A DNA stretch of 64,000 bases from contig OZ024742.1 of assembly GCA_964016885.1 (NCBI GenBank), positions 267,468,001 to 267,532,000 of the forward strand, given 5' to 3'. Shown piece by piece: positions 1 through 64,000 of this stretch (positions are counted from its first letter, which is position 1; each line of letters begins with the position of its first letter). Under the pieces are notes generated by a model that did no database searches, was not told the DNA's origin, and saw only the letters and a program-made list of their open reading frames with translations. The translations under genes were made by a program, and so were the position numbers. The stretch comes from Eledone cirrhosa. Its lineage: Eukaryota.

Positions 1-110
1 CTCACCCTTAACGGGATTTTCTGAAACTCAGAAGATCCCGTTAAGGGTAAAAGCAACGATTCTTTACTTAAACTTTAATCTGTTATTTTAATAAATAAAT
101 AAATATATAA
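1..110. repeat. Fold-back junction of dispersed repeat family E (other copies ~19210-19700 minus, ~33468-33875 plus, 34020-34050)
   Basis: CCCTTAACGGGAT..CTGA-AAC-TCAG..ATCCCGTTAAGGG hairpin; same sequence recurs at 19366-19400 (reverse) and 33718-33790. Confidence 0.7.
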
Positions 111-154
111 ATAAATAAATAAATATATATATATATATATAATTTTATATATAT

Positions 155-635
155 ATTGTTATACTTTGGGAGGGTCATGTTGCCAAAAAGAAACACACGC
201 ACCAGCTGCTTTCACTTCAATTTATTATAATAAATTTATAAATTTAGGAATTTATAAATTTCCGGTTGGTTGGTTGGTTCCACAACCAGATGGTTGTTTA
301 TATATTGTTAAAGTTCTTTCGTCACACATTCTGTGACCTCTTCAGTGACTGGGGATTCTTTTCTTTGTTTTTGTGCCTCTTCTTTGTTCTGTCCTACGCC
401 ATTTTGTTTCTGTGTGTGTGTTGTGTGCTTAGTCTGCGCATGCGCCACATCCGGATGTCTGTGTGTGTTTATATTCGTTTATTTATTTGTTTATTTATTT
501 GTTTATTTACATGTTACAGGTTGGTTGTTTGTTCTGTGTGCGTGTGTGTTTTCATTTTGTCCTTAATTGTAAGTTGTGATGTTGCTGTTCCACTCATGTT
601 TTCTATTTAATTTTGGTTGTAATCTTGCTAAACAA
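155..635 (-). mobile_element. 3' end of a Penelope-like element (GIY-YIG C-terminus plus 3' region with HHR-like core at ~310-350)
   Basis: Minus strand reads ..LQPKLNRKHEWN, matching ..RPKLNRKNEWN of the 16456-17970 element; shared terminus ATGACCCTCCC..AAGTATAACAA next to (AT)n. Confidence 0.7.
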
Positions 636-1280
636 ATGTATATATATATATATAAATCAATTTTCTGTATCTATATCATTTTTAATATCTCGGCTTGCTG
701 CAGGCCAACCAAAATAGAATCTCTATATAAAGTCTGCACCGAAACATTCACTGATTCACTGAGCACTACCCGGGTCTGTGATCCCTACAGTGTCCTTGCC
801 ACAAACACTTCATTTATATATATATATATATATATATATATATATATATATATATATAAACATAAATTATCGAGATTCGCATTTCAGCCCATGAAATAAC
901 GAAAAACAACCTCCGAGATGTGCGGCAAGTGCTCAATGATTCAGATGAACCAGAGCTATAACAAACGTTAAAGGCCAAACACACTGAGACGATAGTTAAA
1001 CGATCATTCGTATAGCCAAAAAAACAACAAAAAACGATCAAGTAATTCGGGTATTGAAAATTTACCCGAACCCTGGTAGTTGGTAAAATCCAGTATATGG
1101 GTTTCTGCGGCTACTAAATCAAGTACCGTCCGCCTACATAAATAATGTCAGGCTTCTGGTAAGATGATTGAACAAGGACGCCACTTTCTCAACAGGTTTT
1201 AGTTCAATGTTAATACAAGGACTGACTATTGCTGACCCCACGTATACATACTTATATATATATATATATATATATATATA

Positions 1281-61200: not shown

Positions 61201-63113
61201 CAGCTATTCTGTATGTAAACACACAGACAAACCGGTTTTTAGAGTCATACTGGTTTTCGAGGAAACACCTTTCCTCTATTCTCCAGAAAGCCAGACAGGA
61301 ATATTGGACTAGTTTCGATGTTGTTACATCTCATCAGCAATATACCTATCCTCCGGCCTTTCTAGAGAATCGTAAAAGCACATATCGTTATATGCTTTTT
61401 CTATGAAAATTAGTAGTGGGCAGACTAATTTGCATAGAGCGTGAGTACGTACCGGTTCAGCGGAGACGATAAAAACAAATAACGAAACGAAATTAAATTT
61501 CGTTTCGTTTGTAACTCACTTTTGTATGACTGACGCTTAAACAATTAAGTTAAAAATGTACATCCACATATGTATACTGAAATACTAGTATGCATATGAA
61601 TACACACACGTATACATATGTAGATGTACCGAGTTTTTCACTGGACACTTTACTGTGAGTGTTCAGCTATTCTGTATGTAAACACACAGACAAACCGGTT
61701 TTTAGAGTCATACTGGTTTTCGAGGAAACACCTTTCCTCTATTCTCCAGAAAGCCAGACAGGAATATTGGACTAGTTTCGATGTTGTTACATCTCATCAG
61801 CAATATTTACCTATCCTCCGGCCTTTCTAGAGAATCGTAAAAGCACATATCGTTATATGCTTTTTCTATGAAAATTAGTAGTGGGCAGACTAATTTGCAT
61901 AGAGCGTGAGTACGTACCGGTTCAGCGGAGACGATAAAAACAGATAACGAAACGAAATTAAATTTCGTTTCGTTTGTAACTCACTTTTGTATGACTGACG
62001 CTTAAACAATTAAGTTAAAAATGTACATCCACATATGTATACTGAAATACTAGTATGCATATGAATACACACACGTGTACATATGTAGATGTACCGAGTT
62101 TTTCACTGGACACTTTACTGTGAGTGTTCAGCTATTCTGTATGTAAACACACAGACAAACCGGTTTTTAGAGTCATACTGGTTTTCGAGGAAACACCTTT
62201 CCTCTATTCGCCAGAAAGCCAGACAGGAATATTGGACTAGTTTCGATGTTGTTACATCTCATCAGCAATATTTACCTATCCTCCGGCCTTTCTAGAGAAT
62301 CGTAAAAGCACATATCGTTATATGCTTTTTCTATGAAAATTAGTAGTGGGCAGACTAATTTGCATAGAGCGTGAGTACGTACCGGTTCAGTGGAGACGAT
62401 AAAAACAAATAACGAAACGAAATTAAATTTCGTTTCGTTTGTAACTCACTTTTGTATGACTGACGCTTAAACAATTAAGTTAAAAATGTACATCCACATA
62501 TGTATACTGAAATACTAGTATGCATATGAATACACACACGTGTACATATGTAGATGTACCGAGTTTTTCACTGGACACTTTACTGTGAGTGTTCAGCTAT
62601 TCTGTATGTAAACACACAGACAAACCGGTTTTTAGAGTCATACTGGTTTTCGAGGAAACACCTTTCCTCTATTCGCCAGAAAGCCAGACAGGAATATTGG
62701 ACTAGTTTCGATGTTGTTACATCTCATCAGCAATATTTACCTATCCTCCGGCCTTTCTAGAGAATCGTAAAAGCACATATCGTTATATGCTTTTTCTATG
62801 AAAATTTGTAGTGGGCAGACTAATTTGCATAGAGCGTGAGTACGTACCGGTTCAGCGGAGACGATAAAAACAAGTAACGAAACGAAATTAAATTTCGTTT
62901 CGTTTGTAACTCACTTTTGTATGACTGACGCTTAAACAATTAAGTTAAAAATGTACATCCACATATGTATACTGAAATACTAGTATGCATATGAATACAC
63001 ACACGTGTACATATGTAGATGTACCGAGTTTTTCACTGGACACTTTACTGTGAGTGTTCAGCTATTCTGTATGTAAACACACAGACAAACCGGTTTTTAG
63101 AGTCATACTGGTT
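58225..63113 (-). repeat. Tandem array of ~10.5 units (463/465 bp), retrozyme-like, one HHR per unit on the minus strand
   Basis: Periods 463,463,465,465,465 twice; HHRs start at 58517, 58980, 59443, 59908, 60373, 60838, 61301, 61764, 62229, 62694 (43 nt each). Confidence 0.95.
58517..58559 (-). ncRNA. Minimal type I hammerhead, first of 10 minus-strand copies
   Basis: Reverse complement ATATTG-CTGATGA-GATGT(AACA)ACATC-GAAAC(TA)GTC-CAATAT. Confidence 0.93.
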
Positions 63114-63126
63114 ACAACATCGAAAC

Positions 63127-64000
63127 TGGATGTACATTTTTAACTTAATTGTTCAAGCGTCAGTCATACAAAAGTGAGTTACAAACGAAACGAAATTTAA
63201 TTTCGTTTCGTTATTTGTTTTTATCGTCTCCGCTGAACCGGTACGTACTCACGCTCTATGCAAATTAGTCTACCCACTACTAATTTTCATAGAAAAAGCA
63301 TATAACGATATGTGCTTTTACGATTCTCTAGAAAGGCCGGAGGATAGGTAAATATTGCTGATGAGATGTAACAACATCGAAACTAGTCCAATATTCCTGT
63401 CTGGCTTTCTGGCGAATAGAGGAAAGGTGTTTCCTCGAAAACCAGTATGACTCTAAAAACCGGTTTGTCTGTGTGTTTACATACAGAATAGCTGAACACT
63501 CACAGTAAAGTGTCCAGTGAAAAACTCGGTACATCTACATATGTACACGTGTGTGTATTCATATGCATACTAGTATTTCAGTATACATATGTGGATGTAC
63601 ATTTTTAACTTAATTGTTTAAGCGTCAGTCATACAAAAGTGAGTTACAAACGAAACGAAATTTAATTTCGTTTCGTTATTTGTTTTTATCGTCTCCGCTG
63701 AAACGGTACGTACTCACGCTCTATGCAAATTAGTCTACCCACTACTAATTTTCATAGAAAAAGCATATAACGATATGTGCTTTTACGATTCTCTAGAAAG
63801 GCCGGAGGATAGGTAAATATTGCTGATGAGATGTAACAACATCGAAACTAGTCCAATATTCCTGTCTGGCTTTCTGGCGAATAGAGGAAAGGTGTTTCCT
63901 CGAAAACCAGTATGACTCTAAAAACCGGTTTGTCTGTGTGTTTACATACAGAATAGCTGAACACTCACAGTAAAGTGTCCAGTGAAAAACTCGGTACATC
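63127..64000 (+). repeat. Inverted continuation of the array (~1.9 units, runs off the window)
   Basis: Reverse complement of the 465-bp unit. Confidence 0.95.
63352..63394 (+). ncRNA. Minimal type I hammerhead (second plus copy at 63817-63859)
   Basis: ATATTG-CTGATGA-GATGT-AACA-ACATC-GAAAC-TA-GTC-CAATAT. Confidence 0.93.

Follow-up and report, generated by a model that had tools for sequence, protein, structure and literature searches.

We consider it likely that the head-to-head pairs of Penelope-like elements (PLEs) and retrozymes described here were each laid down in one insertion event, with both DNA ends primed on RNA of one source. In every family the 3′ end takes either of two fixed forms, with or without a tail, and 181 of the 194 pairs whose ends could be typed combine one of each. 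The head-to-head PLE layout with a one-sided tail has already been described; the strict one-tail rule, and the presence of the same signature in non-coding retrozymes, are new here.

Divergent pairs in the window and across the genome

The window, a 64,000-nt stretch of Eledone cirrhosa contig OZ024742.1, contains the following features, with families given by letter.

1285..1536, minus strand: H tail-less arm, left end at (TA)16
1560..1946, plus strand: H tailed arm, tail of ~130 nt, then (AT)61
2069..2749, no strand: compound of an A tailed arm, (AT)n and a K mini-pair, duplicated in inverted orientation with an AT-rich centre
2287..2352, no strand: K mini-pair, a 49-nt tailed arm (minus) and the stub of a tail-less arm (plus), the stub read from sequence
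2772..3283, minus strand: B tail-less arm (420-nt retrozyme, predicted type I hammerhead)
3280..3700, plus strand: B tailed arm, then (TC)19(TA)57
8238..8403, minus strand: A tailed arm, with (TA)28 between it and the B arm
8460..8809, plus strand: B tail-less arm, hammerhead core at 8558
8946..9340, minus strand: F tail-less arm
9335..9979, plus strand: F tailed arm, 183-nt tail, 63-66 bp duplication at the junction
16457..17829, minus strand: D PLE tail-less arm, truncated GIY-YIG-type ORF at 17211-17829
17830..17895, plus strand: junction insert of 66 nt, exact inverted copy of 17401-17466
17896..17975, plus strand: D tailed arm, then (AT)15(TG)54
35742..36293, minus strand: C PLE tailed arm, 100-nt tail, hammerhead motif at 35887-35931
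36294..39214, plus strand: C PLE tail-less arm, GIY-YIG ORF remnant at 36339-36986, hammerhead motif at 39125-39169
38201-38390: SINE nested in the C tail-less arm
44230..44362, minus strand: G2 arm
44388..45049, plus strand: G arm, 541-nt period, candidate hammerhead core at 44719
57765..57982, minus strand: B tail-less arm of a divergent subfamily, in a different-family pair
57978..58148, plus strand: A tailed arm of that pair, 5-nt overlap with the B arm
58225..63113, minus strand: E tailed arm (465-nt retrozyme, predicted type I hammerhead), 10.5 monomers in a five-monomer higher-order pattern
63114..63126, plus strand: junction insert of 13 nt, matching the sense hammerhead region of E, read from sequence
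63127..64000, plus strand: E tail-less arm, running 549 bases into the next stretch (L031)

The preliminary description had placed divergent pairs at nine sites. Five of these are direct same-family divergent pairs with one tail (B 2772-3700, F 8946-9979, D 16457-17975, C 35742-39214 and E 58225-64000, the last ending 549 nt beyond the window), and one, B(-)/A(+) at 57765-58148, is a direct pair of different families whose arms overlap by 5 nt. At 44230-45049 two families, G2 and G, are joined across a small hairpin with (TA)5, as an untyped pair. The remaining two sites are not as claimed: 2068-2750 is an inverted duplication (2069-2749) with both outer ends tailed, its halves aligning at 91% identity and sharing one K junction (the mini-pair at 2287-2352 has its mirror copy at 2460-2531), and the arms at 8240-8830 (8238-8809) are not directly joined, (TA)28 lying between them. 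The list had also overlooked the family H pair at 1285-1946, and some limits were revised: F extends to 9979, C begins at 35742, and the right end of the B pair adjoins (TC)19 instead of (AT)n. Orientation could be taken from hammerhead or ORF, as stated, in B, C, D and E; A and F show no hammerhead by the pattern used.

The divergent 5′-to-5′ layout itself held up and extends across the genome. In 98 content-blind 10-kb stretches (980 kb), 95 same-family directly joined arms were divergent, 1 convergent and 1 tandem, and a held-out set of 17 stretches gave 23:0:0; adjacent SINE-SINE neighbours, for comparison, were divergent in 2/9. The divergent bias of same-family arms is far beyond chance. 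Family membership was decided manually on the strongest links, automatic clustering having fused unrelated families via chance adjacency, and K32/K54, of unknown orientation, were excluded. The family library was made from ends abutting (AT)n, which renders the statement that ends touch (AT)n partly circular, except for families E and C, which were found through internal sequence. Direct divergent same-family junctions numbered 258 in 1.607 Mb; the pair density of ~100 per Mb extrapolates to a genome total of ~3x10^5. Pairs occupy ~3% of the sampled bases, bearing out the earlier suggestion that they are a systematic source of palindromes. They are a major source of short palindromes, which repeat annotation could mistake for MITEs; the main text of an Octopus repeat annotation (PMC13282606) mentions neither ribozyme, retrozyme nor palindrome.

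The 98 stretches contained 294 arms with an end at (AT)n; 136 of them belonged to pairs, 51 were bounded by (AT)n on both sides and 107 fell in neither class. Many of these 107 arms reflect library limits or nested insertions. Many (AT)n-ending arms are nonetheless unpaired and single-ended insertion clearly takes place too, which counts against the explanation that we favour.

Coding capacity and hammerheads of the families

A 692-aa stop-free frame of family C, at locus L289, matches PF01541 (E 0.0028, below the curated cut-off), and the ORF remnant in the window (36339-36986), which is 98% identical to it, does so at E 2.3e-4, just under the cut-off. The Pfam search of the 692-aa frame gave no match to a reverse transcriptase (RT); the frame contains motifs which we take to be RT-like. 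By these motifs and the PF01541 match, a single ORF of C has a putative PLE-type RT with a GIY-YIG endonuclease C-terminal to it. The two C hammerheads in the window (35887-35931 and 39125-39169) match Rfam Hammerhead_1 at 31.7 bits (gathering score 34, E 6e-4), and core and stems are visible, as in a minimal type I hammerhead in the 3′ repeat. All Rfam hammerhead matches in the window fall under the gathering score, and the Rfam miRNA matches there were rejected as (AT)n noise. A 205-aa remnant of D aligns with the GIY-YIG region of C at 24% identity and has no Pfam match.

Families B and E have periods of 420 and 465 nt, respectively, with 12 hammerhead cores of E within the window, and the longest stop-free frames in the two are 81 and 107 aa. 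Judged by sequence, both consist of non-coding tandem monomers with one predicted type I hammerhead each, as animal non-LTR retrozymes do; the E retrozyme is a young family. Such repeats insert with the same signature as the ORF-bearing C and D. This analysis linked no enzyme to E or B, which also counts against our favoured explanation.

A hammerhead pattern matched 241 arms on the strand whose 3′ end is the fixed end and none on the opposite strand. It found no core in arms of A (0/83), F (0/23), K (0/182), I (0/91), H (0/8) and G (0/10), and is not exhaustive, having also missed C (0/86) despite the sub-threshold Rfam match. Many of the small hammerhead RNAs of the preliminary description (among them M, P, V and Q) are probably not separate RNAs but the 3′ remains of longer elements.

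One tail per pair and probable priming from both DNA ends

The one-tail rule was followed by 22/22 complete E pairs outside the window. A junction was present at 26 of 33 E loci, the two-armed form being the commonest outcome in this family, and family C yielded 14 clean pairs among 32 regions. In the 13 same-ended pairs (of 194), about 5 had a truncated arm or lacked (AT)n at one end. Tails measure 33-183 nt across families and form clear hairpins in E (z -3.1), C (z -2.3) and B (z -2.6), but not in A and H by the same test.

In 70 of the 181 pairs the tail-less arm extends >25 nt further upstream than the tailed arm, and therefore neither arm can be a DNA copy of the other in these pairs; that neither contains the other agrees with the earlier proposal that cDNAs are joined at their truncation points. 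Tailed arms ran >12 nt past the upstream site in 155/181 pairs and ended within the tail or <=12 nt past this second site in 26/181. Three C tailed arms (L264, L283, L284) ended 1-3 nt beyond the upstream site, and 7/18 B tailed arms within 20 nt of it. Target duplications of 10-13 bp bracket the whole pair at L254, L101 and L182, and the L254 pair sits within an H element of which an unbroken target is found in the same locus. A wider scan flagged target duplications in 53/181 pairs, most of them in imperfect (AT)n and not decisive. Fixed outer ends, duplications around whole pairs and the lack of containment in 70/181 pairs support the proposal of the preliminary description that both ends of one cut prime cDNA.

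A Penelope-type enzyme likely cuts both strands of (TA)n-rich DNA in a single event, presumably by a staggered GIY-YIG cut. One 3′-OH would start at the distal site and the other at a site 33-183 nt upstream, and the interval would be the tail. The distal cDNA would then halt at the upstream start site, or pass beyond it by strand displacement, and host end-joining would link the two cDNA ends through short overlaps, natural hairpins or small templated inserts. As template we slightly prefer one RNA primed at two sites to two RNAs from the same locus or circle; in ~3% of pairs the second DNA end appears to use the RNA of a different family.

Mates were nearer to each other than to other loci in 105/117 pairs, and shared non-majority bases between mates exceeded expectation in C (24 vs 2.0), P (29 vs 4.3) and K (60 vs 19.6), a likeness that could also be explained by gene conversion or by two RNAs of one locus. 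In the multimeric E pairs at L176, L252, L260 and in the window the two outermost monomers differ, and priming is therefore not always at adjacent sites of one monomer. Two separate, unrelated RNAs as the rule are not supported: mates are close to each other and ~97% of direct pairs are single-family. Separate RNAs, as first proposed, can thus account for no more than a minority of pairs, and a single source RNA fits better. Same-family pairing suggests family-specific recognition and lends no support to one shared mobilisation system.

Pairs joining different families do exist, as first noted, but the frequency count showed them to be rare (~9/290 direct pairs). Of 17 candidates, eight were set aside because they were truncated, untypable or artefacts of the library; among the nine end-typed pairs, eight joined a tailed to a tail-less arm and none had a readable target duplication. 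It is conceivable, if short of probable, that these pairs are secondary, having arisen by later deletion between neighbouring pairs or by loss of target DNA on insertion of a young arm next to an old one. Insertions gather in shared (AT)n tracts, where 80 convergent neighbours of different families were counted; at L276 an I arm of 92% adjoins a C arm of 99.7%, and nesting or deletion plainly lies behind two junctions: L199, where E(+) and B(+) are fused and the inner arm is 3′-truncated, and L220, a diverged K arm beside a 99% E arm, both tail-less. Deletion, however, predicts that about half of the junctions be same-ended, whereas 1/9 was.

A rival reading makes dual priming on two RNAs the general route: either DNA end would use an RNA of its own, mostly of common source, with an asymmetric dimer setting the two start sites. 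In its favour, the different-family pairs were mixed in 8/9 cases vs 33/59 for arms facing across (AT)n (p ~0.04), a comparison in which two end types (family Y) were read by eye and which without family Y becomes 6/7. Arms mostly overlap in RNA coordinates, for which one RNA would need strand displacement, the outermost monomers are unlike in some E pairs, and dual priming has been proposed for L1 (PMC2837659). We nevertheless hold it unlikely as a rule: the ~97% of single-family pairs and the source variants common to mates speak against it, at 33 E loci and 30 B loci no pairing of an E or B arm with an ORF-bearing one was seen, and more tailed arms than expected halt at the upstream site. 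Whether PLEs in general integrate by default through an asymmetric two-ended reaction, in which each DNA end has one fixed start site on the RNA and the ends can be loaded with RNAs of different families, is a tentative and somewhat doubtful extension. If true, dual priming would have left its genomic record in the A/K, K/F, M/B, D/A and B/A pairs. The two-armed arrays of E and B would then be the first evidence found at insertion sites for Penelope machinery moving animal hammerhead retrozymes.

Fold-back, in which one arm is reverse-transcribed and the other copied from a hairpin primer, is very unlikely as a general account. The available text of PMC3846280 proposes self-priming on antisense templates for Adineta palindromes and interprets such palindromes in this way, and junctions of K, A and J do gather at natural hairpins, where the arms are near symmetrical. 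Hairpin junctions would, however, result just as readily if two cDNAs annealed, the 5′ truncation points of the two E arms are mostly unrelated, both outer ends are fixed yet different, and the 70/181 pairs without containment already contradict a general rule. Self-priming probably accounts for the compound palindromes (2069-2749, 50038-51358) and for the small number of same-ended pairs. Assembly artefact through chimeric fold-back reads deserves next to no credence, although palindromes are a known assembly hazard (part of PMC8557442) and no junction-spanning read or contig was obtained (for the B/A junction, 57595-58148, none among the pieces listed from three contig sets and one RAD run, where repeats swamp the signal, individuals may differ and absence proves nothing), because arms of old families differ by up to ~20% and pairs show two different fixed ends, unequal overlap, target duplications and later nested insertions.

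Comparison with known systems

The pairs resemble the units of endonuclease-bearing (EN+) PLEs in the available parts of PMC3846280, PMC8557442 and PMC2377424, in which an inverted 5′-truncated copy adjoins the 5′ end, the head-to-head form is the most frequent, the tail is often one-sided, (TA)n is favoured, duplications are 8-10 bp and minimal hammerheads lie near the 3′ end. Here, too, we found the inverted 5′-truncated copy, the one-ended tail and the whole-unit duplication (clear at three loci). Unlike in the units so described, tails span 33-183 nt vs 30-40, the rule has been counted (181/194), non-containment opposes self-priming, and rare different-family pairs are present. PMC8969392 restates the known PLE layout, and the part of PMC8557442 available to us calls the origin of tandem and inverted PLE units unresolved. 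A search that was thin in subscription papers and without supplements found no paper tying the one-tail rule to two-ended PLE priming.

According to the accessible sections of PMC11167929, PAc (Poseidon, Anolis) cuts and extends both strands of an AT-rich target, is a predicted dimer and has two reverse-transcription start sites on its RNA, the interval between them being the tail. Those sections make no link to inverted pairs, and in the genomic pairs of this study each end keeps to one site, an asymmetry that is unreproduced in vitro because the start site of PAc was the same on both strands. Our counts favour priming at both DNA ends over self-priming and provide sharp predictions for this existing in vitro system.

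In L1 twin or dual priming, as covered in parts of PMC2837659 and bioRxiv 10.1101/2024.12.14.628481, both cut ends are likewise extended by reverse transcriptase and the products joined head-to-head within target duplications. There, by contrast, the second primer anneals at an internal position that varies, the arms are free of overlap and the outcome is a variant one, whereas here the second site is fixed, the arms mostly overlap and the paired form is the commonest outcome in E. L1-type twin priming was accordingly rejected, the second start being fixed and only 26/181 tailed arms being confined to the tail or its vicinity.

B and E are tandem, non-coding and hammerhead-bearing like the animal non-LTR retrozymes of PMC7229834 and bioRxiv 10.64898/2026.07.22.740005, for which both papers propose PLEs as mobilisers, arguing, in the parts available, from co-occurrence, tandem layout and pLTR phylogeny. 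Two-armed insertions with one tail are absent from those parts, and the evidence here comes directly from the insertion site. The same signature on non-coding hammerhead repeats thus links animal retrozymes to Penelope machinery where they insert, and takes that link beyond co-occurrence and phylogeny.

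Divergent pairs in the window and across the genome

The preliminary description had placed hammerhead-bearing elements in divergent pairs, joined 5′-to-5′ with their 3′ ends at (AT)n, and this layout held genome-wide. We built a family library, which is incomplete, from clusters of ends abutting (AT)n and used it to annotate arms in 98 stretches of 10 kb, taken content-blind at fixed round coordinates and thus evenly spaced, not random. Direct same-family arms were divergent in 95 cases, convergent in 1 and tandem in 1. At least one pair was present in 52 of the 98 stretches, 3.2% of bases lay within pairs, and the density of 103 pairs per Mb extrapolates to ~3 × 10^5 pairs genome-wide, given an evenly spaced sample and an incomplete library. 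Seventeen stretches retrieved after the library was fixed yielded 23 divergent arrangements and no convergent or tandem ones. In a SINE control (229 arms), 2 of 9 adjacent pairs were divergent. In a pattern scan, 241 arms had the hammerhead core on the inferred sense strand, and no arm had it on the opposite strand. The same scan found no match in A, K, I, F, H, G or C arms; the orientation of these families, C excepted, was derived from the fixed end.

The window, part of a 3.0-Gb assembly, is not unusually rich in AT repeats, because it holds ~10 (AT)6+ runs per 10 kb as compared to 22.7 in the genome sample. Its families A-K were resolved by self-comparison and by tandem, ORF and hammerhead scans, followed by reading of the sequence. 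Families B and E consist of tandem non-coding monomers (420 and 465 nt, respectively), each containing one type I hammerhead. Family C retains a GIY-YIG ORF remnant with 98% identity to a 692-aa RT and endonuclease frame at another locus; the family D remnant is more distant and gave no Pfam match. Of nine sites initially listed as divergent, five are direct same-family pairs (B, F, D, C, E) and one is a direct B/A pair, while a G2/G site was left without end typing. Two others proved different in structure, and one pair had been missed:

8238-8809: arms separated by (TA)28
2069-2749: compound unit duplicated in inverted orientation (91% identity), both halves with an identical K junction; not a one-tail pair
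1285-1946: family H pair, absent from the sites first listed

Other repeats were observed in the window and elsewhere:

58225-63113: E array with a five-monomer higher-order pattern, repeated twice, which arose from a later duplication of 2.3 kb or else from copying around a circle of five monomers
L031:544-2058 (just beyond the right edge of the window): stop-free 504-aa frame (RT and GIY-YIG-type) of another Penelope-like element (PLE) family, 40% identical to family C, beginning immediately after the E tail-less end
50038-51358: 1.3-kb palindrome (95%) with a hammerhead-bearing family at its centre (core at 50753); both arms continue beyond the fixed end of this family into a MITE-like piece and a further ~400 nt. 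It looks like an inverted duplication including flank, and a (TTAGGG)n-like array (49882-49983) lies 55 nt away
34051-35672: 630-nt unit of cluster K29, present twice (~990 nt apart, 96% identical) and ending at (AT)n, for which no partner end was found
L160:416-1025 and L034 (other genomic stretches): 610-nt repeat (clusters K32/K54), both ends fixed at (AT)n
40456-43200, 47455-48420, 49016-49873, 51400-53050: decayed frames, LINE-like and transposase-like by their motifs

One tail per pair

In most families the 3′ end is fixed at one of two sites, tailed or tail-less, 33-183 nt apart. End typing over 222 non-redundant stretches (1.607 Mb) covered 258 direct divergent same-family junctions, of which 181 joined a tailed to a tail-less end, 5 were tailed on both sides and 8 tail-less on both; in the remaining 64 an end was truncated or untyped. 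Loci retrieved by search are best-scoring copies, biased toward long arms. Of the 33 loci of the young family E outside the window, retrieved by internal sequence, 22 contained a complete pair, with one tail in every case; a single arm was present at 7, and 4 were interrupted. In family C, 14 of the 32 regions contained a clean one-tail pair and 14 a single C arm, which in two regions was joined to another family; the other 4 were ambiguous or interrupted. Among 30 family A loci chosen by their tailed end, 14 had an inverted partner, tail-less every time; at one further A locus (L156) the partner came from family K.

Recurrent stop points were observed in two families. At L132-L160, A arms repeatedly break off at one 5′ point, ~220 nt away from the tailed end, whether they are paired or stand singly between (AT)n tracts; no hammerhead was found at that point. 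K arms (L047, L053, L102 and others) nearly always end ~55 nt upstream of the tail-less end, inside a hairpin just before hammerhead-like GAAA/stem III; the longer K copies examined lack the upstream hammerhead core motif.

Some pairs, as the preliminary description noted, join different families. Of 17 direct candidates (16 in the main annotation, 1 in the held-out stretches), 9 were typed at both ends after locus extension, and 8 carry one tail: the window B/A, A/K, K/F, M/B, I/C, D/A, Y/K and C/Y, the two Y ends being typed by eye. K/E at L220 is the sole exception. Neighbours across (AT)n had mixed ends in 33/59 cases, as compared to 8/9 direct pairs (p ~0.04). L199 and L220 show that deletion or nesting also produces different-family junctions, and at L276 the ages of the two arms are mismatched. 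Further pairs of this kind, with partners from families that the library lacks, may be hidden among the unpaired arms.

Probable priming at both DNA ends and the RNA template

A 10-13 bp duplication surrounds the whole pair at L254, L101 and L182; most other sites lie inside (AT)n and are unreadable. At L254:2272-4405 an E pair has inserted into an H element, and the unbroken target, a natural paralogous empty site, is present in the same locus. The H element in turn belongs to a larger divergent H structure. The L101 pair lies in non-repetitive DNA. The 5′ truncation points of the two arms of E pairs are mostly unrelated, and junctions show few-base overlaps, natural hairpins or short inserts. 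In 70 of the 181 pairs the upstream reach of the tail-less arm exceeds that of the tailed arm by >25 nt; since only the tailed arm carries the tail, neither arm can be a DNA copy of the other in these pairs.

PAc, a PLE protein from Anolis and a predicted dimer, cuts both strands and extends them, with two start sites that delimit the tail (PMC11167929). For the layout, fixed ends, asymmetry, shared source and duplications observed here, we propose that each DNA end would use one start site, that cDNA would run past the upstream site by strand displacement, and that host end-joining would link the cDNA ends. Two-ended priming on RNA of the same source is, in our view, probable.

The preliminary description had invoked two RNAs primed at one cut. 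Mates were nearer to each other than to other-locus arms in 105/117 pairs, and in C, P, K, D and R they had clearly more non-majority bases in common than expected; the signal was weaker in old A and B pairs. Such similarity points to one source, but not to one molecule, and gene conversion could have contributed. Three C tailed arms stop 1-3 nt past the upstream start site, 7/18 B tailed arms stop within 20 nt of it, and over all families 16/181 stop within 12 nt, consistent with the same RNA carrying a second priming complex, or with a site-intrinsic protein block. In multimeric E pairs the outermost monomers differ at L176, L252, L260 and in the window, arguing against strict adjacency of the start sites; they match in register at L183 and L251. 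We lean slightly toward a single RNA molecule as template over two.

Relation to known elements

Among the main texts reached by a literature search, none combined tail asymmetry, pair layout and two-ended priming for PLEs, and none reported the pair layout in retrozymes. Retrozymes have been proposed to be non-autonomous PLE derivatives (PMC7229834; bioRxiv 10.64898/2026.07.22.740005), and the concepts of twin and dual priming belong to L1 (PMC2837659; bioRxiv 10.1101/2024.12.14.628481). For PLEs, an inverted 5′ copy, an excess of head-to-head copies, a one-sided tail, a (TA)n bias and duplications have already been described (PMC8557442, PMC3846280, PMC2377424, PMC8969392). The structure is real, abundant and of a known kind; what is new is the set of quantitative constraints on the mechanism.
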